Source: an uncultured delta proteobacterium
Lineage (GTDB): Bacteria > Myxococcota_A > Polyangia > Fen-1088
Direction of reading: 5' to 3'
Assembly (NCBI GenBank): GCA_963737265.1
Contig: CAVTRY010000018.1
Coordinates: forward strand, 224,001-288,000
Length of the DNA stretch: 64,000 nucleotides
Below are positions 3,609 through 48,909 of this stretch, in pieces (within the stretch, counting starts at the first letter, position 1; each line of letters begins with the position of its first letter). Below the pieces are notes generated by a model that had not been told where the DNA came from, did no database searches, and saw only the letters and a program-made list of their open reading frames with translations. The translations under genes were made by a program, and so were the position numbers.

Positions 3609-4790
3609 CTATTCCTTCTCCACCGCGCGCCGGTGCAGGGCCATGTGGCCGCGTTGGATGCCTTCGCCGGCCAAGGCTTTGAGCGCGGCGAGGTTTTGCG
3701 CGAGGCCGACGCTGCCGATGATTTCGGCGAGCTCGCGTGAGCTGGTGGCGCCGACGATGCGCAGGACGAGGCGGGCGAGGGGATGGACTTGCAAGGTGCC
3801 ACCGACGGTGCCGAGAGCGAGGGGCATTTCCAGGCGGCCTGCAAGGGCGTCGCCATCTACTCGCCAGGTGGCGAGCGGGCGATAGCGGCCGTCGCTGGCG
3901 GCGTAGGCGTGGGCGCCGGCTTCGATGCCGCGCCAGTCGTTGCCGGTGGCGATGACCACCGGATCCACGCCATTCATGATGCCCTTGTTGTGAGTGGCCG
4001 CGCGGTAGACGTCGTCCTCGGCGAAACGCGAGGCGGCTTCGATGTCGCGCGCCAGGGTTTCGCCTGCGTCGCCCGCAGCTTCGGCTTTGTCGGCGAGCGC
4101 GGCGAAGGGCACGCGGCAGGACACGCGCACCATGCGCCGGTCGGAAAGATTGGTGAGGATGCACAGGCCGACGCGGGCCGAGGCGATATCGGCGAGGCGC
4201 GCGGCCACGGCCTCGGCCACCGTGTTGACCATGTTGGCGCCCATGGCATCGCGACAGTCGATGTGCAAGTGAACGACCAAGCGCCGGTCGGGCAGGGTGC
4301 GCACGTCCAGGTCGCGACAGCCGCCGCCACGTTCGCGCAGACGGGGCAGGGCAGCGTCGGCCATGGCCATGATGTCGGCTCGGCAGGCTTTGATGAGCCC
4401 GGTCGCTCGGGCGCTGTCGGCCACCTCGCGCAGCTCCACCTGCGCGGTCATGATCGCTTCGTCCGCCACGGCGAGAAAACCGCCGCCCTGGCGCACCATG
4501 CGCGCGGCATTGGAGGCCGCCGCGATCACCGACGGCTCTTCGACGGCCATCGGAACCAGACGATCCACGCCGTTGACGACGAAGTTGAGTCCGAGGCCGA
4601 GCGGCAAGGCATAGATGCCGATGGCGTTCTCGACCATGCGGTCGGCGCCGGCGGCGGCGATTCCGCCGGATTCAAGCAGCGCGAGATCGTCGGGCGAAAG
4701 GCCCGCTTGCACGGCGAGCTCGGCTTGGCGTTCGGCGAGAGGCAGGCGGTAGAAACCGGGCAGGCGCGAATTCGGCGGCGAATCAGGCAT
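3609..4790 (-). CDS. mvaA: Class II hydroxymethylglutaryl-CoA reductase
   Basis: ENAIG, PMAVEEPSVIAAAS, DAMGANMVN, ATHNKGIMNG and GIQRGHM motifs. Confidence 0.95.
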   Translation of the reverse strand: MPDSPPNSRLPGFYRLPLAERQAELAVQAGLSPDDLALLESGGIAAAGADRMVENAIGIYALPLGLGLNFVVNGVDRLVPMAVEEPSVIAAASNAARMVRQGGGFLAVADEAIMTAQVELREVADSARATGLIKACRADIMAMADAALPRLRERGGGCRDLDVRTLPDRRLVVHLHIDCRDAMGANMVNTVAEAVAARLADIASARVGLCILTNLSDRRMVRVSCRVPFAALADKAEAAGDAGETLARDIEAASRFAEDDVYRAATHNKGIMNGVDPVVIATGNDWRGIEAGAHAYAASDGRYRPLATWRVDGDALAGRLEMPLALGTVGGTLQVHPLARLVLRIVGATSSRELAEIIGSVGLAQNLAALKALAGEGIQRGHMALHRRAVEKE

Positions 4791-5796
4791 GGAAGAGTCC
4801 GGCATTTTCGAGGTTTTCCTCGTCGGGCAAACGGCGGCGCACGCCCAAGCGGTCGAGGTCGACGTCGAGCGGGACCAGTGGCTTGGGTAGAGCGCGGGCG
4901 AACAGGCGCGCCGATTCGGGGGTGGCGAACATGGCGACGCCGATATCGCCGCCGCCTGCGCCCGAGGGCTTGGCGATACCGCCGAGCTCCCTGGCGAGAT
5001 CCGAGGCGCGCGTGAAGGCGCTGGTAACGATGGGAACCCGTGCGGCGGTACCGAGCACGGCCAATTGCTGGCCGTAGCGCCCGGCGGCGGTGACCGCGCC
5101 AGTGGCGCTGCCTGCGCGCAGCTCGGCGACGAAACGGTCGGCGATGTCGCGCAAAGTGGCGATGACCCGCCGATAGGAGGCGGCATCCTTGCGCGCGAAC
5201 GTCTCGACGCCTTCGATCATGGACTTGGTGGCGACGGGTTGGCCGGTCCAGAACACGACCAGGTGTAGTCCCGCCGGCGGCTCCAGCGAATCGACGACCG
5301 GCGCCGAGTCCTTGCGCCGTTCGACCTTGATGAGCCCGCCGTAGGTCGCGGCGGCGATGTCGGCGCCCGAGCCCGCGCCGCCCTGGGCTGCCCGATGCGC
5401 GGCGTCCGCGATGGCGAGAATTTGCGACCGGCGCGATGCAATGGGCACGCCCGCCGATTCGAACAGCGCGCCCACCGAAGCCACTGCGGTGGCGGCGCTG
5501 GAGCCGAGGCCAAGCTTCTGATTGCCTTGGTGGAAGTCGTCGGTGTTCACCAGCACCGAACCGGGCGGCAGAGCGGCCGAGGCGTCGCCGAGCTCGGCGC
5601 GGGCGCGTTTGACTGCCTCCGCCACCACCTGTGACATGGCATCCATGCCGGGAATGTACTGGGCAACTGCGTGGCGCGTGACGGCCGCCAGAACGGCGAC
5701 GCCTTCTTCGAGCACGGCGTACTCGCCGACCAAGAAGATTTTTCCGGGCGCGATGACGACCGGGGTTCCGACCAGGGTGCTGCGTTCGCCGCTCAT
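4783..5796 (-). CDS. Phosphomevalonate kinase (GHMP family)
   Basis: APGKIFLVGEYAVL, KLGLGSSAA, GSGADIAA and KPSGAGGGD; lies within the mevalonate operon. Confidence 0.85.
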   Translation of the reverse strand: MSGERSTLVGTPVVIAPGKIFLVGEYAVLEEGVAVLAAVTRHAVAQYIPGMDAMSQVVAEAVKRARAELGDASAALPPGSVLVNTDDFHQGNQKLGLGSSAATAVASVGALFESAGVPIASRRSQILAIADAAHRAAQGGAGSGADIAAATYGGLIKVERRKDSAPVVDSLEPPAGLHLVVFWTGQPVATKSMIEGVETFARKDAASYRRVIATLRDIADRFVAELRAGSATGAVTAAGRYGQQLAVLGTAARVPIVTSAFTRASDLARELGGIAKPSGAGGGDIGVAMFATPESARLFARALPKPLVPLDVDLDRLGVRRRLPDEENLENAGLFHA

Positions 5797-6827
5797 GTGG
5801 GATTTCGCCGGGGTTCTTCGTTAACGATGTGCGCGCCTGGGCCAGGAGCAAGCGATAAAACTCTCATGACGCCGGGGGTGGTGTCTAGCGCCTGTGCTAC
5901 GAGATGAGCATCGGCAGAAGCACACAAGACTTTGACGTGGGGACCGGCGTCGATGGTGAAATAGGCCGCCGTTCCCGAGGCGCGCAGTTGTTTGACCGTG
6001 GCGATGGCGGCGAGCGTGGCCGGGTTCCAATAAAGGACATATGGATCGGCTGCCATCGCGCAGGCGTGCATGCGCAGGGCGCTGCGCTCGGCCACCGCGC
6101 CGAGACCGGCGAGATCGCGCGCCACAACCGCCGCGCGCGCCTGGGCGAGATCGGTCGGCACCGAGGCTAGCCAGCCCTGGTAATAGGGCGATGTTTGCGC
6201 CGTACGTTCCATGGCGGCGGTGGAGCCGATGGCCTTTGCACCCTCGGCGGTGATGGCCACGCACAGGCGAATGTTCCAGGCGCTTTCGCCGAGCAAGTCT
6301 CGGGCAACGGCGTCGCTGCCGTCGGCGCGCGTACCGGCCGACATTTCGGCGAAACCGCCGAAAATCGATCGCGCCGCCGAGCCGGAACCGCGGCGGGCAA
6401 GCTCGGATAGCTCGGCTGGCGATAGCTGCAAGCCGGCCGCCCGGGAAGCGGCGAGCGCCAGCGCCGCGAAGCCAGCCGCCGACGACGCCAGACCAGCTGC
6501 GGTGGGCACGGTATTCGACGTGACGACCTCGGCGGGCAGAGCGAGCTCAGCGCGGGCCCGCACCAAATCGAGAAAGACGCGCACGCGTTCGGCGAATTTG
6601 CGATCGGCTGCGCGGTCACCGAAGACGACGCGATCGCTTCCGTCGCTTTCGCCCGCGTCGCCGGCGAAGCGCACAGTGGTTTCGCTGCCGAGATCGGCGA
6701 GGGTGAGCGACAAGCTGCCGGTGGCGGGCAGGTTGAGCGCCTTGTCGCGCTTGCCCCAGTATTTGACGAGGGCGATGTTGGTACCCGCGCGGGCGGTAAC
6801 GAATTTGGGCAACGAGGAATCAGTCAT
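5793..6827 (-). CDS. mvaD: Diphosphomevalonate decarboxylase
   Basis: NIALVKYWGK, PTAAGLASSA, RRGSGSAARS and FTIDAGPHVK. Confidence 0.95.
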   Translation of the reverse strand: MTDSSLPKFVTARAGTNIALVKYWGKRDKALNLPATGSLSLTLADLGSETTVRFAGDAGESDGSDRVVFGDRAADRKFAERVRVFLDLVRARAELALPAEVVTSNTVPTAAGLASSAAGFAALALAASRAAGLQLSPAELSELARRGSGSAARSIFGGFAEMSAGTRADGSDAVARDLLGESAWNIRLCVAITAEGAKAIGSTAAMERTAQTSPYYQGWLASVPTDLAQARAAVVARDLAGLGAVAERSALRMHACAMAADPYVLYWNPATLAAIATVKQLRASGTAAYFTIDAGPHVKVLCASADAHLVAQALDTTPGVMRVLSLAPGPGAHIVNEEPRRNPT

Positions 6828-7734
6828 GGCCGATGGTGGTGACAAAGCCGTAGTAACCCTTGGCGCGCCAGCGGCGCAAGACCTCGTCGCTGTTTTCGGC
6901 GGCAAGAGCGATCACGGCGCCGCCGCCGCCCGCGCCGGTCAGCTTGGCCCCGGCGGAGCCGGCCGCGCGCGCGGTGTGGATCATGTCGTCGATTTCGGGC
7001 GACGAGACGCCCACGCCGGCAAGCAGACCGTGGGCGAGGTTGAGAAGGCGGGCCAGGGCGGCGAGGTCTCCGCCCGCTAGCGCTTCTATGCCGGCGCGCG
7101 AGACGTCGCCCAGGGTGTCGATTGCTTTCCGCGCGACGGGGGTCGTGTCGCAGAGCTCCTTCACGGCGGCCACCAAGGCGCCAGTGTCGTGACTCTTGCC
7201 GGTGATCCCGATGCACAGATCGAAGGATTTCTTGAGCGGCAGATCGCGCCAGCCGCTTTGCTTGTCGAAACTGCCCAGGCAACCGCGGCTGGCGGCGGCA
7301 GCGTCGATGCCGGAAGGCGTGCGGTGAAATACCGATTCCGACGCTGCTGCGGCGGCGAGCACGTCGGTCTCGCTTGCCCCGGTGCGGGCGGCCACGGCGC
7401 GCGCCACGGCCACGGCCATGGCGGCCGAGCTTCCCAGCCCGGCGCGCGCGGGCACGTCGGACTCCAGCCAGAAGTCCAGGCTGTTGGCGCCGACGTTCAG
7501 CTTTTCCAGCAGTCGGGCAATCGCCTGGCCGGGAAGCGAATCGTCGCCGATTTGCACGTCGAGGCTCCAGGCCGGCGCAGCAAGACTGCCGTGGCCAGGG
7601 CTGGCGTAGGCGCGCACGCCGCTGGGAATGCCGGCGGCCACCGCGGGCTGGCCGTGCACGACGGCGTGCTCGCCGAACAGGATGACCTTGCCGTGACCAA
7701 AGCCGGTGGTGCTGTCGGACGAACCAGCCATCAC
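6820..7734 (-). CDS. mvk: Mevalonate kinase
   Basis: [30 protein letters not shown] and [10 protein letters not shown]. Confidence 0.95.
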
Positions 7735-8795
7735 GGTCTCTGCGCCAGCCAGTCACGCAGCTCACCGGTGATTACCCGCGGCGCCCGGGCCAAATCCGCG
7801 GCACGGGCGACGCCCGCAAGCATGCAGGCGGTGCGAAGCCCATCCATGACCGCGGCGAGAAAGTCGATCGCGCCTTTTGCACCGTCTTTGCTGGCGGCGG
7901 CCAACACGGGCTGGGCCAGTCCCACGACGCGAGCGCCGAGGGCCATGGCGCGCGCGACGTCGAGGCCGGTGCGGATGCCGCCCGATGCGATGACTTGGGC
8001 GCGCAGATCGAGATCGCCCAGCCAACCCACGCAGGCCGCGGTGGGAATGCCCCACTCATGGAAGAGCTGCCCGCGCGCGGCTTGCGGGCCCGTGGCGCGC
8101 AGGGCTTCGATGGCGATCCACGACGTCCCGCCCGCGCCGGAAACGTCGATGGCGGCAACACCGAGGTTGTCGAGTGCCCGCGCGGCCGTGGGTGCGATGC
8201 CACAGCCGGTTTCCTTAACCAGGACGGGCCGGCCGAGCTCGTCGACGACGCGCTGGATGGTGGCGAGGCCCTGGCGAAAGTCGTTGTCACCACCGGGCTG
8301 GGCCAGCTCTTGGCCGACGTTGAGATGAATGGCCAGCGCGTCCGCGCCCACTCGATCCATCGCGGCGACAACGGCATCGGTCTTCATCCCGGCAAGCTGG
8401 ACAACGCCGAAGTTGGAAAGCAGGAGGACATCCGGGGCCACGTCGCGCACTTGGTAGGTCGAAGCCAGCTCGGGCTTGATCAGCATGGGGCGCTGGCTGC
8501 CGAGGCCAAAGGCGATGCCGAGAGCTTGCGCCGCGCTGGCCAGGTCGCGGTTGAGCGTGCGCCCCTCGGGTGTGCCGCCGGTCATGCCCGTGATGAGCAG
8601 GGGCGCCGCGAGCTTGTGGCCGAGCAGCGTGGTGCCAAGATCGATGTCGTCAAAGGCGAGCCCAGGCAGCGCGGAGTGCACCAGCTGCACGTTTTCGAGC
8701 AAGGTCGAGCGCGCGAACGCGCCCGCGCCCGAACGCGCGAGGTGAATGTGATCGGCCTTGCGCTTGGCGATATCGGTGGAGGGGGTGCGTGGCAT
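7731..8795 (-). CDS. fni: Type 2 (FMN-dependent) isopentenyl-diphosphate delta-isomerase
   Basis: RKADHI, ITGMTGG, LGSQR, HLNVGQE, VKETGCG, GAGGTSW and ASGGIR. Confidence 0.95.
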
Positions 8796-8873
8796 GCGAG
8801 AGGTGGAACATTTGAGCACGCACCCGCCTGTCCGTCGAGGGCTACGGTCCGTGCCGACGCGAATCGAGGCGAG

Positions 8874-10352
8874 TCAGTACAGGGTGATCGCCGACAGGCA
8901 GATCCCAAACGCGACCGGAGTTTCCTGGGACGTGACTTGCAAGGCGAATTGATCGACGGCGGCAAAGTCGGTCAGGGAGGAACCGCCTTTCGACCGACAA
9001 CTGGACGAAAAGTCCGACGGCTTCACTGTCCGTCCCGACCGGTAGTCTTGCACGCAGTACCAGCGCTCGTCGGGATCGCCGTGGCGATGGGCGACTAGCT
9101 GGTAGATTCCCGACTTGCCGCGGAATTCGATGGCGATCTTCGAGGCGGCGTGGCTACCCCACGCCTTGCGGTCGGGGCGCGGGAACCACTCCATGTGGAC
9201 GCCCCAGTTGGTGTCCCAATCGCACTTGCGCGGCTGGTCTTCGGTGTCCACGCACGTGATCTCGGCAATTCGGCCGTGCGTGCATAGCAACCCGCCATCG
9301 CTAACCCAATGGCCAGGCGCTTTGCTGGCGGCGGCCGAAAACCTCGTTCCCGAACCGCCGACAGCGCGGACGAAGCCTGGGTTATCTCCGGTTGGATTGC
9401 CATTGTCGCCGATGGTGGTTTGGCCCGAACCAGTGGTGGCGTCGTCGTCCGCCGCGGCGGAGGCGCGCCAATCCCGGAATACCGCCTCGGGCAGGATCGA
9501 CGCAGTGTCGGCCTGCGGCCCCGGCGTCACCCCGAGTGGCATGGTTCGACTTGCGACTCTTCCGGTTGACGAGCTTCGCTTGCGCTGCGGGCGGTGGCCG
9601 GTGGAGCTTTCCGTCGCGGCCCTGTCGCCCGCTACAGCCGACGCGATCTGTGCCGGGGCGGTCCGTTCGGGCAGGATGGGTGTTGCTTCGAGGCTGTCCA
9701 GGACTAAGCAGGCGGTGGTGCCGTTGGCTTCCAGCCGCTGTCCAGAACGAACAGGCATGCGATCGCTTTGCGAGCAGCCGCCCACGTCCACTTCGCCCTG
9801 GAGCACGCTCAGCTTGAAATGGTTGCCGTTGGGCGCCCAATCCACCGCGAAGCGCGTGCCGGTCACGTGAACGGCGAAGGGGCCGGCGTTCACCTCCCAC
9901 CGGCCGATCCAGCGATGAACAACGGCAAGCTCGGCGTGGCCGCTAGCAATCAGCAGTTCGGCACCACGCCGGAAGCCTAGCGCGCGCAGATTGCCGCGCG
10001 TGGCTTGCGCCAGAGTGATGCTCGTGCCGTCGGCGAACGCCACGGTTCCCGCACCAGTATCCGGAACCGACAGGTTGCCGTTCACAGCCAGAAAGCAGTC
10101 ACGCTCCTGGTGGCCGAGGGTGAGACGCGCGCCGATGCCGAAAGCCAGTCCCAACGCTGCCAGTGCGGGTATGACTAGGACCCATCGCTGTCGTCGGCGA
10201 AAGCCTCGTGCGCCCACGAGCGCGCTCTCAATTTCGGCCCATTGCCTGAGGTCAGGCCGCCGCTCCCGCCCTTCCGCGGCACGCGCCGCCAAGTCACCCA
10301 GAAAGTGACAGCAAGCCTCGCTTGAGCCTGCCAGTTCTCGTTCGCTTGTCAA
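8874..10352 (-). CDS. FecR-domain anti-sigma factor with a C-terminal Cys-rich extracytoplasmic domain
   Basis: Single TM segment, FecR motif (AGPFAVHVTGTRFAVDW...LSVLQGEVDV), a linker, then a ~170-aa Cys/Trp-rich domain. Its start overlaps the stop codon of the ECF sigma gene. Confidence 0.85.
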   Translation of the reverse strand: MTSERELAGSSEACCHFLGDLAARAAEGRERRPDLRQWAEIESALVGARGFRRRQRWVLVIPALAALGLAFGIGARLTLGHQERDCFLAVNGNLSVPDTGAGTVAFADGTSITLAQATRGNLRALGFRRGAELLIASGHAELAVVHRWIGRWEVNAGPFAVHVTGTRFAVDWAPNGNHFKLSVLQGEVDVGGCSQSDRMPVRSGQRLEANGTTACLVLDSLEATPILPERTAPAQIASAVAGDRAATESSTGHRPQRKRSSSTGRVASRTMPLGVTPGPQADTASILPEAVFRDWRASAAADDDATTGSGQTTIGDNGNPTGDNPGFVRAVGGSGTRFSAAASKAPGHWVSDGGLLCTHGRIAEITCVDTEDQPRKCDWDTNWGVHMEWFPRPDRKAWGSHAASKIAIEFRGKSGIYQLVAHRHGDPDERWYCVQDYRSGRTVKPSDFSSSCRSKGGSSLTDFAAVDQFALQVTSQETPVAFGICLSAITLY

Positions 10353-10996
10353 ACCGATCCTCCCTGGCCAAGCAGGCCCACGTAGTCCGCGAGCGCTGGC
10401 TCGGATTTCATGCGCGAGTCGACCCGCAGGGCGAGCCGAGCGATGCGCCGCTTGACGGTGGACAGACTCACCCCGTGGGCTGCGGCCACGTCGATGACTT
10501 CCATTTTTTCGATGTAGCGGGCAACGAACAACGAGCGATCCTCGGCACCCAGGCCGTCAAGCAGGCGGTAAAGCGCTCGCACCGCCTCGCGTGCCTCGTC
10601 GCGCTCGCCGGGAACGACGGTTTCTGGCAATTCCTCGCTCGAGGTCAACCCCACAATGGAGCGGATGCGACGGCGGCGCGCCTCGTTGCGCGAGACGCCG
10701 AGGGTGACGCCGATGATGAAGCCTGACAGGGCGCCCGGCTCGCGCAATTCGTCGAGACGCCTGAAAATTCGCAGGAACGCCTCCTGACACACGTCCGAAA
10801 GATCCGGACCCGGCCCGAAAAATCGCCTGACCAGTCGTTGCACCAGCGACGCGTATTTCTCCCAGATGGCCTGGCACGCGCGCCGGTCGCCGCCACGAGC
10901 GGCCCACACAAGCGGCCCATCTCCGCCGTCCGGACTGCCGGATCCGTACTGCGGCGGGGAGGGTAAGGGTAGCATGAGACGAAGTGCCGATTGCAT
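10349..10996 (-). CDS. ECF RNA polymerase sigma factor (start uncertain; alternatives at 11041 and 11059)
   Basis: Region 2 DVCQEAFLRIFRRLDELREP; region 4 VAAAHGVSLSTVKRRIAR. Confidence 0.92.
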   Translation of the reverse strand: MQSALRLMLPLPSPPQYGSGSPDGGDGPLVWAARGGDRRACQAIWEKYASLVQRLVRRFFGPGPDLSDVCQEAFLRIFRRLDELREPGALSGFIIGVTLGVSRNEARRRRIRSIVGLTSSEELPETVVPGERDEAREAVRALYRLLDGLGAEDRSLFVARYIEKMEVIDVAAAHGVSLSTVKRRIARLALRVDSRMKSEPALADYVGLLGQGGSV

Positions 10997-11222
10997 GGGC
11001 AGGCTACCAAGGACGATCTGTAAACGCAACGCTCTCGCCATGACGACCATGACGACCATGACGAATCATTTCGCGGGGAGATTGATGCACGGTCTCTCTT
11101 AACCGGGAGAGTCTCGAAGCGTCCGCCACAGCTCAGATCAAAGCTGACCCGCCCGGGCCGGCCCGCGACTCATAGCTGGTTGACGCCGTCTACTGTCAAC
11201 AAGCACAGATCGGGGGATTCCA

Positions 11223-12095
11223 ATGACTAATACCTATTTTACCAAGGTGTCCATTCCGTCGGCTATGGCGATTGTCGTTTGCATCATAGTCTTAGGTTGT
11301 AGCACGTCGCGTTCTGGCCTTCTCGTCAGCAAGGATGCGGGCAGCGCTGGCGGCAGCCCGGGAGGCACCGGTGGCGCGACGACCGGCGCGGGCGGCACGA
11401 TCGGCGGCATGGCCGGCGCGGGCCGCACCGGAGTGACGAGCGTGGCCGGCGCAGGCGGCAGCACTATTGCGGCCGTGAGCGGAGATGGCGGTGGCCTGGG
11501 AACGATCTCGACCGGAGCGGGCGGGAGCACGACCGGTGGCGCGGCGACAGGTGGAACCACGCCGCCCGGTGCCCCAACGGTGACAGACAGCGGCTATCTC
11601 ACCGTGTCCGCGGGTACGACCGTGCTGGTCGGGTACGTTTCATCGTTTGAGGGCGGATCCGGATCGTCGATTACGCTGACCTATACGTCGACATCCTTTT
11701 GTGCCTCGGGCACGGTAGGCGCAAATAGTGCCTACGATTCATGGGCCGGGGCTGGGTTCAATGTCAAGCAAGGGCAATCAGGATCGAGCGGATCCGCCAG
11801 CTCGTTGGTCCTTTCTGGAACGACGATTTCCATCAGCTACGTGAACCACGCCGGTTCCACGCTTGAATTTCAGCTCTACGACGGCAGTGATTACTGGTGC
11901 TACGAGCTGCCGCCTTCCGCCACCCCGACCACGAAGACAATCCAATTTTCGAGCCTCAACACGCAATGCTGGGATAACGGTGGAACACCATTTGTTTCTG
12001 GCACGCCTATCACGGTGGTTGAGCTGGTAGCGCCCGGCAGCGGCACCGTCGCCACGCCCTTCGATTTCTGCTTTCTGGGCTTGACGGTCCAGTGA
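11223..12095 (+). CDS. Lipoprotein with a Gly/Thr-rich linker and a C-terminal Cys-containing beta-rich (putative carbohydrate-binding) domain
   Basis: Lipobox VLGC, a GGT/GAG low-complexity linker, and a ~170-aa domain ending FDFCFLGLTVQ. Confidence 0.75.
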   Translation: MTNTYFTKVSIPSAMAIVVCIIVLGCSTSRSGLLVSKDAGSAGGSPGGTGGATTGAGGTIGGMAGAGRTGVTSVAGAGGSTIAAVSGDGGGLGTISTGAGGSTTGGAATGGTTPPGAPTVTDSGYLTVSAGTTVLVGYVSSFEGGSGSSITLTYTSTSFCASGTVGANSAYDSWAGAGFNVKQGQSGSSGSASSLVLSGTTISISYVNHAGSTLEFQLYDGSDYWCYELPPSATPTTKTIQFSSLNTQCWDNGGTPFVSGTPITVVELVAPGSGTVATPFDFCFLGLTVQ

Positions 12096-12145
12096 GCGTG
12101 GCGCGGTCTCAAGTCGTGTCGCGATGGCAACCTGGAGGAACACCG

Positions 12146-13339
12146 ATGAAATTGTGCTATTTCGGCTTCACGATGGCGCTCCTGGCGGGGGCGACGTGCG
12201 GTGGAAACCTGAGGAAGAATGGCCATGCGGACGAGCTTACCCAGGACACCGTGGTCAGCGAGACCACCGGCAAGAATCCCTTCAAGAATGTTCGCTTCTT
12301 TATCAATCCGGACTATGTCGAGGAGGTCGAATCGACGGTGCGAAAACTCCCCGACCAAGCCGCCCTGATTCGCAAAGTCGAAGCACAGCCAACCGCGGTC
12401 TGGCTTGACACCATTGCCGAGGTGTCGAAGTTGCCCCACTTTCTCGACGAAGCGAAGAAGCAGCAGGTTGCGAGCGGCCAGCCCACGCTCGCGGTGTTCG
12501 TGCTGTGCGATTTGCCCAACCGCGATTGTGCCGCCAAGGCGTCGGCGGGCGAGCTGGCGGTCGAGGCCGGAGGCGAAGCTCGCTACAAGTCCGAGTTCGT
12601 CGATCCCATTGCGGCGCAATTCGAAGCCCACGCGGACCAGCCTATCGTTGCCATTATCGAACCCGACTCACTGGCGAACATGGCCACCAACATGCACATT
12701 CCCAAGTGCGCCGCCTCGGCCGCGGCTTACAGGAATTCCATCGTCTATGCCATCAAACGACTGGCCTTGCCCAATGTCAGCATCTACCTCGACGCCGCCC
12801 ACGCCGGCTGGCTCGGCTGGGACCACAACCGAATCAAGATCACCAATATCTTCAAACGCGTGCTGCAAGAAGCCGGCGGTATCGACATGATTCGCGGCTT
12901 TGCCACCAACGTGTCGAATTACACGCATCTGCGCAATCGCGACGGCGCCGCACTGGCCTTGACCAATCCCTGTCCCAACGAAATCACCTACGTAAAAATG
13001 CTGGCAGAAACATTAAGCATGTACGGCATTCCAGGCAAAGGCTTCATCATCGATACATCGAGGAACGGCAAGGGCGGCATCAGGCACCAATGGGGAAATT
13101 GGTGCAATGTCAAGAACGCGGGCCTCGGCGAGCGACCCCGTGCAGAGCCGATGCCTGGAATCGATGCCTACTTTTGGATCAAGCCGCCGGGCGAATCCGA
13201 CGGCGTCTCCGATCCAGCACAGCCACGCTTCGACGAAATGTGCGCCATTCCCGACGCTGTTCAGGGCGCCCCCCAGGCCGGCAAGTGGTTCGAATCCTAC
13301 TTTCTGGACCTCATTCGCAACGCCAACCCGCCGCTTTAG
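12146..13339 (+). CDS. Glycoside hydrolase family 6 cellulase/cellobiohydrolase
   Basis: DLPNRDC, IIEPDSLAN, DAAHAGWLGW, GFATNVSNY, IDTSRNG, WCN, WIKPPGESDG and APQAGKWF; GGAGG RBS upstream. Confidence 0.95.
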   Translation: MKLCYFGFTMALLAGATCGGNLRKNGHADELTQDTVVSETTGKNPFKNVRFFINPDYVEEVESTVRKLPDQAALIRKVEAQPTAVWLDTIAEVSKLPHFLDEAKKQQVASGQPTLAVFVLCDLPNRDCAAKASAGELAVEAGGEARYKSEFVDPIAAQFEAHADQPIVAIIEPDSLANMATNMHIPKCAASAAAYRNSIVYAIKRLALPNVSIYLDAAHAGWLGWDHNRIKITNIFKRVLQEAGGIDMIRGFATNVSNYTHLRNRDGAALALTNPCPNEITYVKMLAETLSMYGIPGKGFIIDTSRNGKGGIRHQWGNWCNVKNAGLGERPRAEPMPGIDAYFWIKPPGESDGVSDPAQPRFDEMCAIPDAVQGAPQAGKWFESYFLDLIRNANPPL

Positions 13340-13579: not shown

Positions 13580-14878
13580 GTGAGCGAATCCGAGCCGCGG
13601 GCCGCGCACCTGGTCGGCGCGGTCCTGGAAAACGCGTACCGAATTATCCGGCTTATCGGCGAGGGCGGCATGGGCGCGGTGTACGAGGCGGTGCAACTGC
13701 GCCTGAACAAGCGCGTGGCGGTGAAGGTGATGGCGCGCGACCTTTCCGCCAACCGCGAAGCCCTGGCCCGCTTTCATCGCGAGGCCGAAATCACCTCGCG
13801 CCTCGGTCATCCCCACCTTGTGACCGTCATCGACTTTGGCACCGCCGCTTCTGGCGAGCCCTACCTGGTGATGGAATACCTCGACGGCACCGATCTCGAC
13901 TACCGCATTCGTCAGCAGGGTCGCCTCCCGCTCGAAACCGCCCTCCACATCACCAAGCAAGTCGCCTCGGCCCTGTCCGCCGCCCACGACCAGGGCATCG
14001 TCCACCGCGATCTCAAGCCCGCGAACGTCTTTCTTCTGCAGGCGACCGGCGAGTCCGACTTCGTGAAGATCCTCGACTTCGGCATCTCGAAAATGAAGGC
14101 CGCGCGAACGCAGCTCACCAACGTTTTGGCCGTCATGGGCACGCCCAACTACATGGCGCCCGAACAGGCCACCGGCGCCGTCGACGACATCGATCCGCGC
14201 ACGGACGAGTGGTCGCTCGCGTGCATCGTATGGGAAATGCTGTCGGGCCGCGGTCCCTTCGCCGCCGCCGACGTGTCCGCGCTTCTGTACCAGGTCATCC
14301 ACCTCGACCCGCAGCCCCTGGCCAAGCGCGCGCCCAACCTTCCGCCCGGCGTAGAGCCCGTGCTTCGCCGGGCGCTGTCGAAGCGCATGGCGGACCGGTA
14401 TCCATCGATCGCGGATTTCACAAAGGCATTCGAGGCCGCCGCGCTCGGACGTGCGGTTGAGGTGACGCGATTTCGAGCAGGACACGGCGATCCTCGGCCG
14501 TTCCGGGTGAACCGTAGACTGGATGCCCACGTTCATCGACATCAATGGCGCCTATCTGGCGCGGAGGCTGTTTCGCGAATAGCTCGTGAACTTCCCAACA
14601 AGGGTTGGCACTGGCAGCGGGGGCAATGTCGGTGGCAGAGAAGCTGCCCTGTGCCGTCTCGACGAAGAGGTCGTGTTTCCAAACATCCTGGGGTGGAATC
14701 CACATGGGGTGGAAGTCTTCGATCATGGGCAGATGGTCGACTTGCGAGACCGCGGCGAACCGCAGCACGGCGGTGTCCCAGTGGTCGGAGGACTCGAAAA
14801 CTATTGTCGTGGTTCCATCGGGCAACTGGAGGCTCACCGCCAGGGACGACCTTTGCTTGCGGCTGTATTGGTAGCTGA
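13580..14878 (+). CDS. Hanks-type Ser/Thr protein kinase; credible to about 14460, probably C-terminally truncated
   Basis: GEGGMGAVY, VAVK, HRDLKPAN, DFG and GTPNYMAPEQ. The tail beyond about 14460 is antisense to another ORF. Confidence 0.88.
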   Translation: MSESEPRAAHLVGAVLENAYRIIRLIGEGGMGAVYEAVQLRLNKRVAVKVMARDLSANREALARFHREAEITSRLGHPHLVTVIDFGTAASGEPYLVMEYLDGTDLDYRIRQQGRLPLETALHITKQVASALSAAHDQGIVHRDLKPANVFLLQATGESDFVKILDFGISKMKAARTQLTNVLAVMGTPNYMAPEQATGAVDDIDPRTDEWSLACIVWEMLSGRGPFAAADVSALLYQVIHLDPQPLAKRAPNLPPGVEPVLRRALSKRMADRYPSIADFTKAFEAAALGRAVEVTRFRAGHGDPRPFRVNRRLDAHVHRHQWRLSGAEAVSRIARELPNKGWHWQRGQCRWQRSCPVPSRRRGRVSKHPGVESTWGGSLRSWADGRLARPRRTAARRCPSGRRTRKLLSWFHRATGGSPPGTTFACGCIGS

Positions 14879-20188: not shown

Positions 20189-23100
20189 ATGCAAAGGTTT
20201 CCCGGATGGGCAATTTTGATAGTGGGCGCTTCCGGTTGGCTGGTTTCGTGCAGCGGCACGAAGGCTGGGGGAAACGTGCCCGGCACTGGCGGGAGCGGCG
20301 ACGCGGCCGTGGTCGCCACTGGCGGTGCTACCAGCTCGGGCGGACAAACCGGTGCCATGTCCAGCGGTGGAGGCAATAGCAGCGGGGGGAATGGCGGCGG
20401 TGGTGCGTCTTCCGCTGGTGGAAGCTCGGGCAGCGGAGGTACTTCGAGCCTGAGCGGCGGAGGCGCTTCTCCAAGCGGCGGAACCACAGGTGCGGGCGGA
20501 AACGGTGCGGGCGGAAACAGTGCGGGCGGCGGCGGTAGCGGCGGCGCAACCGGCGGCGCAGCTGGTGGCGGAAGTGGCGGCGGAAACGGTGGGGCCAAAG
20601 ACGGTGGCGCCACGACGTCGGCTGGCGTCACCCTAAGCGTGGGAGGCGGCACCTTGAAGATCGAGCTGTGCGCGGACAACGTGATTCGCGTGGCCTTTGC
20701 CAAGAGTGCAGACTTCTTCACCCGGGCCAGCTTGATCACGGCGGCGAAGCAGTGCGTGCCAACCTTGGCCACCGCCACGACCGTCGGCAACCTGACCCAG
20801 ATCGCCACCGACAAGCTGACCGTGCAGGTCGATACAACGACCGGCCAAGTGACCTTCCTCGATCCCACCGGCCAAACCATTTTGGCCGAAAATACTGCCG
20901 GCGGCCGCACCCTGACCGCCGCGACGGTGCAGGGTGAGGCCACCACCAGCGTTCGCCAGGAATGGGCGCCCAACGCCAGCGAGTCGCTCTACGGACTAGG
21001 TCAGCACCAGCACGGTCTTATCGACATCAAGGGTACCGATCTGGATCTGCACCAGTACAACACCGAGGTCTACATTCCCTACCTGGTGTCGAGCAACGGC
21101 TACGGCATCCTGTGGGACAATACCTCGTTCACACGCTTCGGCGATCTGACCGACGCTGTGCCCTTGCCTGGAGCCACCGGTCTCTACGCGACGACCGGCG
21201 TCCCCGGCGATGTCAACCCCGGCAACGGCAATGTGAACTGGACGGGCACGATCACGCCCACGGTGACGGGCGATTACACCTTCCGCACCTACTCGACGAG
21301 CACTGTCCAGCTTAGCGTGAACAACCAAATGGTGATCAATCACTGGCGGCAAAGCTGGCTGCCTAACGAGGACATCGCCCACGTGACCCTCACCGCCGGG
21401 CAAGCGGTGAAAGTGCAGCTGCAATGGATCGGTGAGGGCGTTAACATCATTCGCCTGCTGTGGAAGCCGCCCGTCGCCAACCGCACCACCTCGTTCTGGT
21501 CCCAGGTGGCCGACGGCACCGACTATTACTTCGTGTACGGACCGGAGATCGACGATGTGGTCGCGGGCTACCGGCAGCTGACCGGAAAGGCGACCATGCT
21601 GCCCCGGTGGGCCTACGGGTTCTGGCAATCCCGCGACCACTACCAAACAGCGCAGGATATCACAGGCGTGCTCGATGGCTATCGCAGTCGCAACGCCCCC
21701 ATCGACAACATCGTGCAGGACTGGCAGTACTGGGTGGCCAATCAGTGGGGCTCGCACCAGTTCGATCCGAGCCGTTATCCAGATCCGGCTGGCCTGGTCA
21801 AAACCGTCCACAACACGTACAACGCCCATCTCATGATTTCGGTATGGCCCAAGTTCTACCCCACCACCCAGAACTACAAAGATCTGAACGCCAAGGGCTA
21901 TGTCTACACACCGAACATCACCCAGGGCATCAAGGACTTCCTGGGCAATAATTTCACTTTCTACGATGCATTTAGTTCCGGCGCGCGGACCATGTACTGG
22001 TCGCAGATCAATACGTCGCTGTTCTCTCTGGGCATGGACGCCTGGTGGCTGGACGCAACCGAGCCGGAGGTCGTCGAAGGCCCCTTCACCAGCATCAGCT
22101 CGCAGGTGACGACCAACCAGACCCACATGAATCCGACCGCTCTCGGCTCGGGTTCGCGCATGCTCGACGCATTCGCCCTGGTCAACAGCCAAGCGGTGTA
22201 CGAAGGCCAGCGCTCCACTACCGCCAACCAGCGCGTTTTCACCTTGACCCGAAACGGCTTTGCAGGGCAGCAGCGCTACTCGGCTACGACCTGGTCGGGC
22301 GACATCTCATCGACCTGGACGGCGATGAAGAAGCAGATCCCGGCGGGCCTCGGCTTCGCGGTATCGGGCATGCCGTACTGGACGTTCGATAGTGGCGGGT
22401 ACGCGGTGCCGGCCCGCTTCGCCAATCCTTCCGCAGCAGACACTACCGAATGGCAGGAACTGAACGCCCGCTGGTTCGAGTTTGCGACCTTCCTGCCCAT
22501 CATGCGCGTGCACGGCCAGGCGCCCTACCGCGAGATATGGCAGTTCGGCGGCAACACCAGCTCAGCTTATGCGGCGATGCTCAAGTTCGATAAGCTGCGC
22601 TACAACATGCTTCCCTATGTGTATTCGCTGGCCGGGGCGGTCACCCAGCACGCGGGAACCATGATGCGCCCCCTGGTCATGGACTTCCGCACCGACACCA
22701 CCGCGCGAGAGATCGGGGACGAATACATGTTCGGTCCCGCGTTCCTGGTTGCGCCGGTCACCACCTACCAGGCGACCTCGCGGTCGGTGTATCTGCCAAG
22801 CGCCCCAGGCGGCTGGTACCTCTTCTGGACCGGCGCGACTGCCGCGGGCGGCGCGAGCATCTCCGCCCCAGCCCCGTTCGACGCCATGCCGGTCTACGTG
22901 CGCGCGGGATCGATCGTGCCGCTCGGCCCGGATCTGCAGTACACCGCGGAGAAGCCCGCGGATCCCATTACCTTGTATGTCTACGGCGGTGCCGACGGGG
23001 CCTTCACGCTGTACGAGGATCAGGGGACGACCAATGACTACGAAACCTCGGCATTCACCGAGATAGCTCTCAAGTGGACCGATGCCACCAAGACGCTCAC

Positions 23101-23260
23101 CATCGGGGCGCGCTCGGGTTCATTTACCGGGATGCTCGCCTCGCGCACCTTCCAGGTCGTTCGCATCGCCTCGGGCAAGGCCGTGGGGTACCCCTCAAGC
23201 GCAACGCCGGACAAGACGGTGACCTACACGGGCGCGGCGGTGGACGTCGTGCTGAACTAG
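20189..23260 (+). CDS. GH31 glycosidase (alpha-xylosidase-like) with a PA14 insertion; lipoprotein
   Basis: Lipobox LVSC, Gly-rich linker, LYGLGQHQ, PA14-like insert, IVQDWQYW, nucleophile motif WWLDATEPE, WSGDI and WTFDSGG. Confidence 0.93.
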   Translation: MQRFPGWAILIVGASGWLVSCSGTKAGGNVPGTGGSGDAAVVATGGATSSGGQTGAMSSGGGNSSGGNGGGGASSAGGSSGSGGTSSLSGGGASPSGGTTGAGGNGAGGNSAGGGGSGGATGGAAGGGSGGGNGGAKDGGATTSAGVTLSVGGGTLKIELCADNVIRVAFAKSADFFTRASLITAAKQCVPTLATATTVGNLTQIATDKLTVQVDTTTGQVTFLDPTGQTILAENTAGGRTLTAATVQGEATTSVRQEWAPNASESLYGLGQHQHGLIDIKGTDLDLHQYNTEVYIPYLVSSNGYGILWDNTSFTRFGDLTDAVPLPGATGLYATTGVPGDVNPGNGNVNWTGTITPTVTGDYTFRTYSTSTVQLSVNNQMVINHWRQSWLPNEDIAHVTLTAGQAVKVQLQWIGEGVNIIRLLWKPPVANRTTSFWSQVADGTDYYFVYGPEIDDVVAGYRQLTGKATMLPRWAYGFWQSRDHYQTAQDITGVLDGYRSRNAPIDNIVQDWQYWVANQWGSHQFDPSRYPDPAGLVKTVHNTYNAHLMISVWPKFYPTTQNYKDLNAKGYVYTPNITQGIKDFLGNNFTFYDAFSSGARTMYWSQINTSLFSLGMDAWWLDATEPEVVEGPFTSISSQVTTNQTHMNPTALGSGSRMLDAFALVNSQAVYEGQRSTTANQRVFTLTRNGFAGQQRYSATTWSGDISSTWTAMKKQIPAGLGFAVSGMPYWTFDSGGYAVPARFANPSAADTTEWQELNARWFEFATFLPIMRVHGQAPYREIWQFGGNTSSAYAAMLKFDKLRYNMLPYVYSLAGAVTQHAGTMMRPLVMDFRTDTTAREIGDEYMFGPAFLVAPVTTYQATSRSVYLPSAPGGWYLFWTGATAAGGASISAPAPFDAMPVYVRAGSIVPLGPDLQYTAEKPADPITLYVYGGADGAFTLYEDQGTTNDYETSAFTEIALKWTDATKTLTIGARSGSFTGMLASRTFQVVRIASGKAVGYPSSATPDKTVTYTGAAVDVVLN

Positions 23261-34760: not shown

Positions 34761-36185
34761 ATGTTGCCCCTCTCGCCCAAGCTCAGCCAGCATTCCGAGG
34801 ACTTTATCGACGACGCCCATCTCGAAAAGCTGGCAGGCGGCGTCGGCCTGGTCGATGTGGCGCGCCTGCGCGACGTGATCGCCAAGGCGCTCGACAAGCA
34901 GGCGCTTTCGGTCGACGAGGCGGCGGTGCTGCTACATGCGCGCGATCCGGAGCTGCGCGAAGAGGTTTTCTCGGCGGCGCGCGAGCTCAAGCAGCGCGTG
35001 TACGGCAACCGCATCGTGCTGTTCGCGCCGCTCTACCTCGGCAATATGTGCGTGAACAACTGCGCCTATTGCGGCTTTCAGAACAAGAACAAGGACATGG
35101 TCCGCCGCACGCTTGGTATCGACGAGATCCGCGAGCAAGTGGTGGCGATGGAGAAGCAGGGGCACAAGCGCCTCATCGTCGTGTTTGGCGAGCATCCGCG
35201 CTACGACGCCGACTTCATCGCGACCTGCATTCGCGATATCTACGATGTCCACACCGGGCACGGCGAAATCCGCCGCGTGAACGTCAACGCCGCACCCTTC
35301 GATCACGCGGGCTTTAGGACCATCAAGGCCGCCGGCATCGGCACCTACCAGATCTTCATGGAAACCTACCACCACAAGACCTACGCGCGCGTGCACCCGG
35401 CCGGCACGCCCAAGGGCGACTACCAGTGGCGGCTCGATGCCTTGAGCCGCGCCTTCGAGGTGGGACAGGACGACCTTGGCATCGGCGCGCTTTTTGGTTT
35501 GGCGGACTGGCGCTTCGACGTGCTGGGTCTCGTCAACCACGCCGTCTTTCTGAAAGATCGCTACGGCTGCGGCCCGCACACCATCAGTTTCCCGCGGCTG
35601 CGCCCAGCCTCGGGCGTCGATCTCGGCGACGGCAATCTGGTCAACGACGAAGACTTCAAGTTTCTCATCGCCGTGCTGCGCCTAGCGGTGCCTTACACGG
35701 GCCTCATCCTCACCGCGCGCGAGACGGCCGAGCTGCGCAAGACCGCCATGGAATTCGGCGTCTCGCAAATCGATGCCGGCTCGTGCGTGGAGCTCGGCGG
35801 CTACACCGAACAGACCTGCGGTCAGCGCATGGAGCGCGAGCAATTCACCCTGGGCGACACACGCACGCTCGATAAGGTCATCGGCGAGCTGACGGAACAA
35901 GGCCATGTGCCCAGCTTCTGCACCGCTTGCTATCGCCTCGGCCGCACCGGCGAACATTTTATGGAATTCGCCATTCCCGGCTTCATCAAGCGCTTCTGTG
36001 CTCCCAACGCGCTGACCACGTTCATGGAATATCTCGTCGACTACGCCTCGCCGGAAACCGCCAAGTCGGGCCTGGCGCAGATCCAGGCCGAGCTCGACAA
36101 GATGGCGGACTCGCCGATGAAGCAGCAGGTCCTCGATCGCTTGGCCCGCATCCGCGAGACCAACGAACGGGACATGGTGTTCTAA
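34761..36185 (+). CDS. hydG: [FeFe]-hydrogenase H-cluster radical SAM maturase HydG
   Basis: Radical SAM motif CVNNCAYC, GIGTYQIFMETYH, GPHTISFPR, and the C-terminal C-x2-C-x22-C (FCTACYR...RFC) that separates HydG from ThiH. Confidence 0.93.
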   Translation: MLPLSPKLSQHSEDFIDDAHLEKLAGGVGLVDVARLRDVIAKALDKQALSVDEAAVLLHARDPELREEVFSAARELKQRVYGNRIVLFAPLYLGNMCVNNCAYCGFQNKNKDMVRRTLGIDEIREQVVAMEKQGHKRLIVVFGEHPRYDADFIATCIRDIYDVHTGHGEIRRVNVNAAPFDHAGFRTIKAAGIGTYQIFMETYHHKTYARVHPAGTPKGDYQWRLDALSRAFEVGQDDLGIGALFGLADWRFDVLGLVNHAVFLKDRYGCGPHTISFPRLRPASGVDLGDGNLVNDEDFKFLIAVLRLAVPYTGLILTARETAELRKTAMEFGVSQIDAGSCVELGGYTEQTCGQRMEREQFTLGDTRTLDKVIGELTEQGHVPSFCTACYRLGRTGEHFMEFAIPGFIKRFCAPNALTTFMEYLVDYASPETAKSGLAQIQAELDKMADSPMKQQVLDRLARIRETNERDMVF

Positions 36186-36400
36186 GCGCGGCTCTCGTGC
36201 GCGTGGTCGGTGCGCGCAACGCACCTAGCTTGGATTCGGCTGTTCACCTGCCGTTCCAGCTCGCATTTTTGCGGCGCCCGGGGCCTTGGGAAAAAACGCA
36301 GGCGGGCCGTGGGTTTCCCGATTCCGCCGGGGCGTTCGGAGCTATAGTCCTGGCCCTGTCTGACCCTCACCAAGCAGGCTCGGAGGATGGGATATCCGAC

Positions 36401-47637
<11,237 letters not shown>

Positions 47638-47679: not shown

Positions 47680-48895
47680 TCACTCGATCGTTCGGCGGGA
47701 TACGGCATCGACGTGTTCGACGACGGCGCGTGCGTTCATTGTCCGGGCGTAGACGTAGAGGGCCGCGGACGAGTCGTCGCCGAGGGCCTCCTCGCTGACT
47801 CGCAACGCTTTGCTGACCGCGAATACCATTCGTTCAGGCAGACCCGCGTTGGTCATCTCGACGCGCTTCCAAACCGCGTCGCGACTCCAAAAGCCGAGCA
47901 CTTCCAGAAACACGCGCTGGCCGTGCTCGCGGTGGACGAATTGCAAGTCAGGCACGCACACGCCGAGGCCCGGCAGATCCAAGATCGCGTCGGCCAACGA
48001 TACCTCCCAAGGCGACGGGTGCTTGCGCAGGTCGCCGAGCAGGGTTACCACCTCGTCGGGCAGGGCGGCCGGATTGCCAATTGGCTCGCCCGGCAGCGCG
48101 GGGGCATTTCCCCGCAGCTGGCAGCGCAGCGGGCGGCGCTCTCGACCCCAGCGCACGTTGGACGTTACACTCCATCGATCGCAGGCCATGATCGCGGGCA
48201 GGGCCAGCGCGAGCTTGAGGCCATACTTGGTGGTCTGCTCAAATAGGCTGAAGGGTCCGTCGATGTCGATGGCATAGCCTGCCCCTCCATCGAGCTTGGT
48301 CACGGTGTAGAGAAGTCGATGAAACTTGAGCTTGCGAAAGAGCGCACGGTAGCCGGCGGGCGTGCTGCTTTGCACGCGGGCCTGCATGCGGACGGCACGC
48401 AGGAGAACTGCTTGATGCTGGGCCAACTCGAAATTCGCAAGCAGATCGTCGGCGGTTGGCAGGGCGGCCCGACGGAGGACGTGGGCGCTCGGAAGATCGG
48501 CGTACAGCGCCTGTTCGAGGGCATCGACTTCCACGCCGCGGTGGTGGGCGATCTCTTGCAGCACGGTGTCTCGTGCGAAATCGCGCTCGCTTCCGCAACG
48601 CACGGTGGCCGCTCGCGCGAAGACCTCACGGCGTAACTCAGTCGGATCCACCGCGGAGCCGTCGTCGAATTCGCACGTATCCAGGGCGAGCTTGAATAGG
48701 GCGCGCGCCAGGCGGTTTTCCGTCGGTGCGACCGCCACTTGGCTCCAAGCTTCGAGGAGCGCCCCGCGCGGTTGCCCAAGATGAGCGCGGACTAGGGCGA
48801 GCGCGGTGGATGCCAGCTCGTTGGCGCGCGGTCGCTCGGCATCGGCCAGCGGCACGACATGTAGCAGATCGCCCCGGCGGCGAACGTGGACCAGG

Positions 48896-48909
<14 letters not shown>
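47680..48909 (-). CDS. DUF790 family (Bax1-like) nuclease
   Basis: MLTADL, LYADL, QAVLLRA, DGPFSLF..TTKYG and PD...EVLGFW. Confidence 0.9.

Follow-up and report, generated by a model that had tools for sequence, protein, structure and literature searches.

A FecR-type anti-sigma factor and a neighbouring lipoprotein of Polyangia carry related four-cysteine domains: a candidate system for sensing beta-glucan fragments

How might a Gram-negative bacterium couple the expression of a cellulase to the presence of plant fibre? To our knowledge, the sensing of insoluble substrates by Gram-negative cellulose degraders outside the Bacteroidota is poorly understood. The question is raised here by a locus at positions 8874-13339 of a 64,000-nt stretch of soil myxobacterium DNA, hereafter called the window. 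The region comprises four genes in two divergent units, with a sigma factor of the extracytoplasmic function (ECF) type and an anti-sigma factor encoded on the minus strand, and a lipoprotein and a GH6 glycoside hydrolase encoded on the plus strand. In the original prediction, the anti-sigma factor and the lipoprotein were proposed to end in one uncharacterised domain, and the former, of the FecR type, to sense glycan directly in the manner of RsgI. We find that the two C-terminal domains are homologous. They probably belong to a new family resembling carbohydrate-binding modules (CBMs), and the anti-sigma factor may use its copy to sense beta-glucan oligosaccharides in the periplasm.

All four genes were recovered at their predicted positions from open reading frames (ORFs) and Pfam matches. 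The features of the locus are the following.

8874-10352, minus strand: FecR-type transmembrane anti-sigma factor, 492 aa (ORF; Pfam FecR)
8877-9395, minus strand: C-terminal domain of the anti-sigma factor, hereafter asC, residues ~320-492 (family profile 30.9 bits, P 1e-11; hhalign 95.5%)
9789-10061, minus strand: periplasmic FecR domain, anti-sigma residues 98-188 (Pfam PF04773)
10122-10184, minus strand: single predicted transmembrane helix of the anti-sigma factor, residues ~57-77 (the strongest Kyte-Doolittle peak begins at residue 57)
10349-10996, minus strand: ECF sigma factor, 215 aa from the ATG at 10996, the ORF being open from 11059 (Sigma70_r2, Sigma70_r4_2, TIGR02937)
11108-11138, minus strand: ECF-type promoter motif oriented towards the sigma gene; the end of its -10-like element lies 112 nt upstream of the ATG at 10996 (regular-expression match, lined up in register with 14 sites of related loci)
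11141-11172, plus strand: ECF-type promoter motif facing the lipoprotein and GH6 genes; it ends 51 nt upstream of the ATG at 11223
11223-12095, plus strand: lipoprotein, 290 aa (signal peptide, lipobox, Gly-rich linker, C-terminal domain)
11565-12092, plus strand: C-terminal domain of the lipoprotein, hereafter lipC, residues 115-290 (AlphaFold2 pLDDT 93.3; CBM11 as top Foldseek match)
12146-13339, plus strand (ORF 12092-13339): GH6 glycoside hydrolase (Pfam PF01341, E 6.8e-103)

The question may first be asked at the level of the two C-terminal domains, which were claimed to correspond motif by motif, in order and down to the last residues. Between the two single sequences, this correspondence is invisible to BLASTP, which finds no significant similarity between the C-termini (best colinear piece, E = 17). 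Likewise, the Smith-Waterman local score is attained by 118 of 1000 shuffles, and the semi-global score by 4 of 500. Profiles give a different picture. A narrow profile built from 120 sequences of the lipC family and compared with 16 anti-sigma C-terminal domains reaches at least 10 bits in 6 of them (best 18.8) and in none of 1600 shuffles; the reverse profile, built from the anti-sigma domains, reaches at least 5 bits in 106 of the 120 lipC sequences and in 6 of 2400 shuffles. With these narrow profiles, hhalign returns modest probabilities of 11% and 23%. In a wide search, the lipC profile was run against 1.84 billion representative proteins, and a family profile was made from 185 domain copies found in 145 search matches. 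This wide profile matches all 16 anti-sigma domains with 15.1-40.2 bits (P 8e-7 to 1.6e-14), including that of the window (30.9 bits), while none of 1600 shuffles attains 10 bits, the highest being at 7.9. After widening, hhalign gives a probability of 95.5% (E 1.3e-8), and in the anti-sigma factor of a related locus (L014) the domain extends over profile positions 5-174, nearly the whole profile. In the opposite direction, the anti-sigma profile retrieves 184 of 186 domain sequences at a reporting threshold of E <= 10 (best 31 bits, E 1.9e-9), among them two copies linked to GH12 catalytic domains (E 4e-6 and 1e-5).

The alignments pair the predicted motifs in order and stop a few residues short of both C-terminal ends. 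They also pair the four cysteines that the two domains had been said to share, C357/C160, C433/C226, C452/C249 and C485/C283 (asC/lipC), which are kept in 183-185 of 186 aligned domain sequences (the 185 family copies and the window's own). Hence the similarity claimed from the letters stands once the profile is widened. It could be argued that the resemblance reflects chance, or the convergence of unrelated cysteine-containing beta-rich domains, as the silence of BLASTP, the frequency with which shuffles reach the local score and the low hhalign values of the narrow profiles might suggest. However, a profile which recognises every anti-sigma domain with up to 40 bits and no shuffle at 10 bits, a reciprocal profile match at 31 bits, the hhalign result after widening and a colinear alignment reaching both C-termini with all four family-wide cysteines in register make such an explanation very hard to sustain. 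The two domains of the window are therefore confirmed as homologous members of one domain family. They are members of one family and not recent copies of each other, since their identity amounts merely to about 15-19%. The view of asC as a close copy of its neighbour has to be given up: asC belongs, as a divergent member, to a large family of 894 representatives, and it contains an insertion with two extra cysteines, so that six cysteines are invariant among the anti-sigma homologues.

What kind of family is it? The domain comprises about 170 residues, with the four conserved cysteines as its signature. Relatives of the lipoprotein domain form 141 clusters; the 119 matches listed, leaving the window protein aside, are 57-79% identical. 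Relatives of asC number 10 by single sequence and 48 by profile (both counts include the window protein); all 48 are 320-509 residues long and 43 contain PF04773. At E <= 1e-3 the wide family numbers 894 representatives, a figure that falls to 494 at E <= 1e-10; single proteins contain as many as five copies of the domain. The domain had been called uncharacterised, and neither asC nor lipC has a Pfam, NCBIfam or PDB sequence match. In particular, no Pfam CBM model matches the two domains of the window, although CAZy families that have no Pfam model could still include them. Across 69 members of the lipoprotein family and 8 of the anti-sigma family, CBM models give weak single matches only (CBM65_1, E 0.041; SusG_CBM58, E 0.084). 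Profile searches of PDB sequences with both domains returned nothing significant; the weak rows obtained (E 0.28-0.62) were dismissed as chance.

Structure prediction is more informative for lipC. Its AlphaFold2 model (pLDDT 93.3, pTM 0.89) is an all-beta sandwich, for which Foldseek finds 35 PDB matches at E <= 1e-3. The top match is CBM11 of Clostridium thermocellum (1v0a; E 3e-6, TM-score 0.54), after which come CBM4, CBM29 and further modules that bind glycans. In the ESM Atlas, asC and lipC have a similar first match, a 187-aa cluster of 66 members, most commonly from Myxococcota (scores 0.96 and 0.97), presumably one and the same cluster; the next matches are to CIA30, CBM30 and galactose-binding-like clusters. 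A Pfam scan of 49 family members, each of at least 417 residues, gives an indication of the company that the domain keeps.

GH12: 8 of the 49 long family members
GH5: 2 of 49
GH30: 1 of 49
CBM96: 1 of 49
Weak sub-threshold esterase-like match: 1 of 49
ZU5: 5 of 49
Stig1-like Cys-rich repeats: 3 of 49
No Pfam domain: 27 of 49

Catalytic domains of the GH12, GH5 or GH30 families are thus found in 11 of the 49 proteins. Being appended to beta-glucanases, often in tandem, the family behaves like a carbohydrate-binding module. The two general characters of CBMs, a discrete beta-sandwich fold (seen in lipC) and attachment to carbohydrate-active catalytic domains, are both found here, and these similarities of sequence context and modelled fold suggest that the domain probably defines a new CBM-like family. 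Five members (P0136, P0165, P0173, P0236 and P0243) have another architecture, with an N-terminal ZU5 domain followed by 3-5 tandem four-cysteine domains and no obvious link with glycan degradation.

How is this domain displayed by the proteins of the locus? The sigma factor matches Sigma70_r2 (E 2.5e-11), Sigma70_r4_2 (E 1.9e-7) and TIGR02937 (E 1.2e-20; 73.8 bits for a cut-off of 42.9), and contains sigma-70 regions 2 and 4 only, as expected of an ECF sigma. Conservation in seven homologous loci places its start at the ATG at 10996 rather than at 11059. It is not of the FecI type: the NCBIfam FecI models give 37.9 and 36.7 bits for cut-offs of 260 and 185, and the generic ECF model alone passes. 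The anti-sigma gene starts with a TTG codon overlapping the sigma stop codon. In the public protein collection the anti-sigma factor is recorded with 426 residues (P0124), 66 fewer than in the ORF, but the longer form is probably right because homologues conserve the longer N-terminus. Its first ~55 residues would be cytoplasmic. Beyond the predicted transmembrane helix comes the FecR domain (34.6 bits for a cut-off of 24; E 2.6e-8), inside which a Gly-Thr pair at residues 165-166 is kept in all eight homologues covering the region, then a long, low-complexity linker which separates it from asC. In the lipoprotein, Cys26 comes after a Leu-Gly lipobox, and lipC is preceded by about 85 residues of Gly-rich linker. 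This protein would be located at the envelope and may be exposed at the surface. The GH6 protein covers profile positions 12-304 of the 305 of PF01341. It probably starts at the ATG at 12146, 50 nt past the lipoprotein stop codon, and its homologues align only from residue 14-57 onward. Its N-terminus is hydrophobic and contains a cysteine, and it has no CBM of its own. Directly downstream lies a Ser/Thr protein kinase gene (13580-14878, plus strand), which is not conserved beside the cluster in the related loci examined.

The association of these genes was studied in 25 loci from species-representative genomes, all of them Myxococcales, Polyangiaceae or unclassified-proteobacterial metagenome-assembled genomes. 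A sigma gene and an asC-type anti-sigma gene lie within ~3.3 kb of the lipoprotein gene in seven (L004, L008, L009, L010, L014, L016 and L025). These seven are the loci in which an asC-type anti-sigma gene was found, and in each its neighbour is a lipC gene, intact or surviving as a remnant. In five of the seven (L008, L009, L010, L016 and L025), a GH6 gene is located between the sigma and lipoprotein genes, on the sigma strand. Three more loci end at a contig or locus edge with fragments of GH6 (L001, L006) or of sigma (L012). Thus, the expected co-occurrence of the family with ECF/FecR genes (7 of 25 loci) and with carbohydrate-active enzymes (11 of 49 fusions) is borne out, whereas the gene order of the prediction, with GH6 after the lipoprotein, holds in the window but is replaced by the other arrangement in most related loci. 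In the window, the GH6 gene comes after that of the lipoprotein, on one and the same strand, and is not preceded by a promoter motif of its own.

Several individual loci deserve a comment. In L025, positions 7965-8090 encode a 42-residue lipoprotein remnant beside the GH6-sigma-anti-sigma cluster, and another contig of the same metagenome-assembled genome (L002, 7467-8531) carries an intact lipoprotein copy whose N-terminus resembles those of cluster-linked lipoproteins; genes for a TonB-dependent receptor and for a histidine kinase lie 4 kb from this copy. In L004, the position of GH6 is occupied by a second ECF sigma gene (6613-7269, minus strand), 26% identical to the first. Most other lipoprotein genes look like dispersed paralogues, some of them adjoining GH43 (L013, L018) or GH3-PA14 (L017) genes. 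Finally, a 935-codon frame of L024 (5310-8114, plus strand) ends with a match to the last 37 residues of lipC; the frame may represent a fusion or a remnant, or be a spurious ORF due to high GC content.

Are these genes expressed together? A conserved element was first seen upstream of the sigma genes in related loci. Aligned in register, it consists of an A-rich stretch, TGRCCC, 16 nt and GACTCW. A regular expression was used to search 396 kb on both strands, with 100 block shuffles as control, and 16 sites were found for 3.4 +/- 1.8 expected (shuffle maximum, 8). Fifteen of the 16 immediately precede sigma, GH6 or lipoprotein genes, in register; the sixteenth (20733-20703, minus strand), antisense within a GH31 gene, was treated as a chance match. 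The two sites of the window stand back to back, 2 nt apart. The one at 11141-11172 is of the TGACCC ... GACTCA variant, also present before the lipoprotein genes of L008, L009 and L016. In L008 and L009 there are three copies each, before the lipoprotein, GH6 and sigma genes. A scan for sigma-70 promoters between 8700 and 13700 found nothing, and the gap between the lipoprotein and GH6 genes contains neither a terminator-like site nor the motif. This distribution is consistent with an ECF sigma that regulates its own expression and a small regulon, and the promoters carrying the motif would depend on this sigma.

Through which protein would the signal arrive? No TonB-dependent receptor or Plug family match was found at E <= 1e-5 among the 44 ORFs scanned in the window, as had been noted from the start, although a receptor could be encoded elsewhere in the genome. 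Three of the cluster loci (L004, L010, L014) likewise gave no TonB-dependent receptor match at E <= 1e-6. Direct sensing by the anti-sigma factor is favoured because its C-terminus is CBM-like, no TonB-dependent receptor match was obtained and the sigma is not of the FecI type.

On this basis, we lean towards a reading in which a FecR-type anti-sigma factor working without a TonB-dependent partner would sense beta-glucan oligosaccharides in the periplasm and control its own operon, the lipoprotein and GH6. The module of these Polyangia (Myxococcota) would have three parts, namely the ECF sigma, a single-pass, FecR-type anti-sigma translated together with it and a small regulon. The C-terminus by which a FecR protein usually contacts its transducer would have been replaced by a four-cysteine beta-sandwich carried on a long linker. 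Soluble beta-glucan fragments, cello-oligosaccharides or similar, would enter the periplasm and bind this CBM-like domain. Binding would then trigger the proteolytic release of sigma normal for FecR/RseP-type systems, and the freed sigma would read TGRCCC-N16-GACTCW promoters to transcribe the operon that encodes it, the lipoprotein gene and GH6. The tethered module of the lipoprotein would keep the substrate or its products at the envelope, beside the cellulase. The nature of the ligand, the binding of glycan and its direct sensing by the anti-sigma factor are proposed from sequence and model comparisons, and the proteolytic cascade by analogy. Single chains and oligosaccharides are the ligands of type-B CBMs, CBM11 and CBM4 among them, and such a preference would be appropriate for a sensor placed in the periplasm. 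Support for the predicted RsgI-like arrangement, in which a FecR system with a CBM-like sensor is associated with a lipoprotein of the same domain family and with a cellulase, comes from the homology of asC and lipC, the fold of lipC, the fusions of the family with glycoside hydrolases, the gene linkage conserved across loci and the promoter motif in common.

A number of observations weigh against this reading. The low identity between asC and lipC, together with the two-cysteine insertion of asC, means that their ligands may differ. The asC model is all-beta but of low confidence (pLDDT 64.2, from a 10-sequence alignment), so that the CBM-like sandwich foreseen for both domains is obtained with confidence for lipC only. 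With this model, the sole PDB match of Foldseek at E <= 1e-3 is a chain of a complex I assembly intermediate, CBMs appearing at about 1e-2. The asC and lipC lists have 7zkq_A and 7zkp_A (the complex I assembly intermediate), 1v0a (CBM11) and 1k42 (CBM4-2) in common, and CBM65 and CBM22 are also in the asC list (E ~1e-3 to 1e-2), but this list carries little weight since the model is of low confidence. The family is not exclusively attached to carbohydrate-active enzymes, as illustrated by the 27 long members devoid of Pfam domains and by the five with ZU5. As for the regulon, the sole motif site of L004 (7309-7278) precedes the second sigma gene, the regular expression has no match in L010 and L014, and in L016 and L025 none is found before GH6. 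Besides, the motif evidence is partly circular because the pattern was derived from these very loci. Lastly, cellulose is insoluble, and a sensor in the periplasm could meet it only in the form of fragments.

The main rival gives a larger part to the lipoprotein. Located at the outer membrane, it would act as the primary sensor or as a co-sensor and contact the homologous domain of the anti-sigma factor in place of a TonB-dependent transducer; in a variant, the induced lipoprotein would compete for the ligand and exert negative feedback. Such a role would agree with the constant proximity of a lipoprotein gene, or its remnant, to the anti-sigma gene (7 of the 7 loci having the latter, and the window), with the flexible linker of about 85 residues, with the fact that no TonB-dependent receptor was found nearby and with the behaviour of canonical FecR, which receives its signal through its own C-terminus, as stated in the available portion of PMC9249621. 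However, the lipoprotein has a promoter motif of its own and appears to be a target of sigma, which fits a role in output or feedback better than that of an upstream sensor. Its family is also much larger than that of the anti-sigma factor (141 versus 48 clusters), most copies being away from any sigma. The prediction of an asC-lipC complex gave a score of 0.00 (mark, 0.32), which counts neither for nor against binding. We regard this role of the lipoprotein as rather unlikely. It may also be asked whether glycans are involved at all. The locus could encode an ordinary pair of ECF sigma and anti-sigma factors responding to the state of the envelope, a protein or a component of a prey or host surface; the beta-sandwich would bind proteins in a general manner or have a structural part, and the neighbouring GH6 and lipoprotein genes would serve another purpose. 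The many long family members without a recognisable domain of carbohydrate-active enzymes (27 of 49), those with ZU5, the versatility of CIA30-like and galactose-binding-like folds, which serve many purposes, and the divergence of asC, with its insertion, could be understood in this way. A non-glycan cue nevertheless becomes improbable when it is considered that fusions to GH12, GH5 or GH30 account for 11 of the 49 long members and a fusion to CBM96 for one, that GH6 is present in five of the seven complete cluster loci and is preceded, in L008 and L009, by this promoter motif, that lipoprotein paralogues lie beside GH43 and GH3 genes and that the best structural matches of lipC are glucan-binding CBMs.

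Returning to direct periplasmic sensing by the anti-sigma factor, a more ambitious formulation may be envisaged. A new four-cysteine CBM family of about 170 residues would have come to serve as the sensor head of a FecR-type anti-sigma factor, yielding, in a diderm host, a transporter-independent periplasmic glycan sensor, the counterpart of clostridial RsgI. Because the sensor and the induced lipoprotein carry related modules, the output could titrate the inducer or hand it over, thereby building feedback into cellulose sensing. Taken in this full form the proposal is possible, and we put it forward with considerable reserve.

The remainder of the window contains other features of interest. 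Directly before the anti-sigma gene in window coordinates, a row of mevalonate-pathway genes occupies 3609-8819 on the minus strand:

3609-5186, minus strand: HMG-CoA reductase
4783-5796, minus strand: GHMP kinase
5793-6905, minus strand: diphosphomevalonate decarboxylase
6820-7734, minus strand: GHMP kinase, probably mevalonate kinase
7731-8819, minus strand: protein of the FMN-dependent dehydrogenase family, possibly a type 2 isopentenyl diphosphate isomerase

A second glycoside hydrolase, a GH31 protein of 1023 residues with an inserted PA14 domain, is encoded at 20189-23260 (plus strand). The stretch 35927-47637 (plus strand) encodes a pair of TPR-repeat proteins of very large size (1952 and 1542 residues), and spurious ORFs overlap there on the opposite strand. 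At 47680-50341 (minus strand), the gene of a DUF790 protein adjoins that of an XPB/ERCC3-type helicase with a damage-recognition domain, a pair which we take to resemble archaeal-type nuclease-helicase partners. Finally, the segment 54954-61158 (plus strand) begins with a regulator containing a WYL/WCX domain (54954-56018), followed by type I-E-like cas genes for Cse2, Cas7 (CT1975-like), Cas5, CRISPR_assoc (Cas6e-like) and Cas1.

How does the locus compare with what is known? Considering the domain itself, lipC has in common with CBM11, CBM4 and CBM29 a beta-jelly-roll (Foldseek E 3e-6 to 5e-4, TM-score 0.4-0.55), and the present family is, like them, appended to beta-glucanases. In contrast, the four conserved cysteines are a signature of the present family, and no sequence similarity is detectable with Pfam CBM models or PDB chains. 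Since the TM-score is merely ~0.5, lipC would stand outside these three families. With its 894 representatives and its attachment to GH12, GH5 and GH30 enzymes, the family is a candidate new CBM family, which may be of interest for enzyme discovery and for the study of carbon turnover in peat and soil.

As regards the sensing of polysaccharides, the accessible parts of the literature describe RsgI-CBM sensors in Firmicutes and, in Bacteroidota, TonB-transducer or hybrid two-component systems (PMC10766802). In C. thermocellum, RsgI/SigI systems combine polysaccharide sensing with autoproteolysis and RseP-dependent release, as outlined in the same source and in PMC10328401. To the extent covered there, the likeness would lie in a membrane anti-sigma factor ending in an extracytoplasmic module of the carbohydrate-binding type, putative in the window protein, and controlling the genes of cellulolytic proteins. 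The sigma factor is of the SigI type in that case and of the ECF type here. Pfam detects FecR alone, and no RsgI-type family, in the present anti-sigma factor, and the binding module differs, being an unannotated four-cysteine family. Moreover, the host being diderm, the sensor would be periplasmic and meet soluble fragments only, unlike in SigI/RsgI.

The FecI/FecR/FecA system and its FoxR-type relatives also associate an ECF sigma with a single-pass anti-sigma factor containing a periplasmic FecR domain. According to the portion of PMC9249621 at hand, self-cleavage occurs at Gly181-Thr182 in FecR and at Gly191-Thr192 in FoxR. The Gly165-Thr166 pair of the window protein recalls these sites and may be taken as a lead only; sequential proteolysis would be expected here as well. 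By its domain content, the anti-sigma factor of the window is a member of the FecR family, yet it departs from this system in that no transducer was found nearby and the sigma scores far below the FecI cut-offs. In addition, the C-terminus is CBM-like and carried on a long linker, and the predicted regulon consists of a cellulase and a lipoprotein, not of a transporter.

A further comparison is with the ECF pairs of the polysaccharide utilization loci of Bacteroidota (original group ECF10). As far as the available sections of PMC7826278 and PMC10766802 go, these pairs associate FecR-like anti-sigma factors with glycan-degrading genes, in diderm bacteria, with carbohydrate-binding proteins encoded nearby. 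There, a SusC-like TonB-dependent transporter passes the signal on, and proteins of their own bear the binding domain (PMC7826278, for the same sections), whereas in the window the anti-sigma factor itself carries the binding-type domain as a fusion and no transporter is linked. In actinobacterial ECF52 and ECF53, carbohydrate-binding domains have been predicted computationally on ECF signalling proteins, a prediction given without experimental validation in the corresponding part of PMC10766802. In that account, these are one-component sigmas to which predicted glycosyl hydrolase or carbohydrate-binding extensions are fused, found in monoderm Actinobacteria, while the system of the window has a separate FecR-type anti-sigma factor and belongs to Myxococcota. 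Full-text searches, with most subscription journals outside their scope, returned no paper on a FecR-type anti-sigma factor fused to a CBM. Beside the systems of Firmicutes and Bacteroidota, the locus would then represent a compact third design, in which an ECF sigma, a FecR-type anti-sigma factor with a CBM-like head and a defined promoter motif govern an output of two genes, and which may be the way in which these bacteria sense plant fibre.

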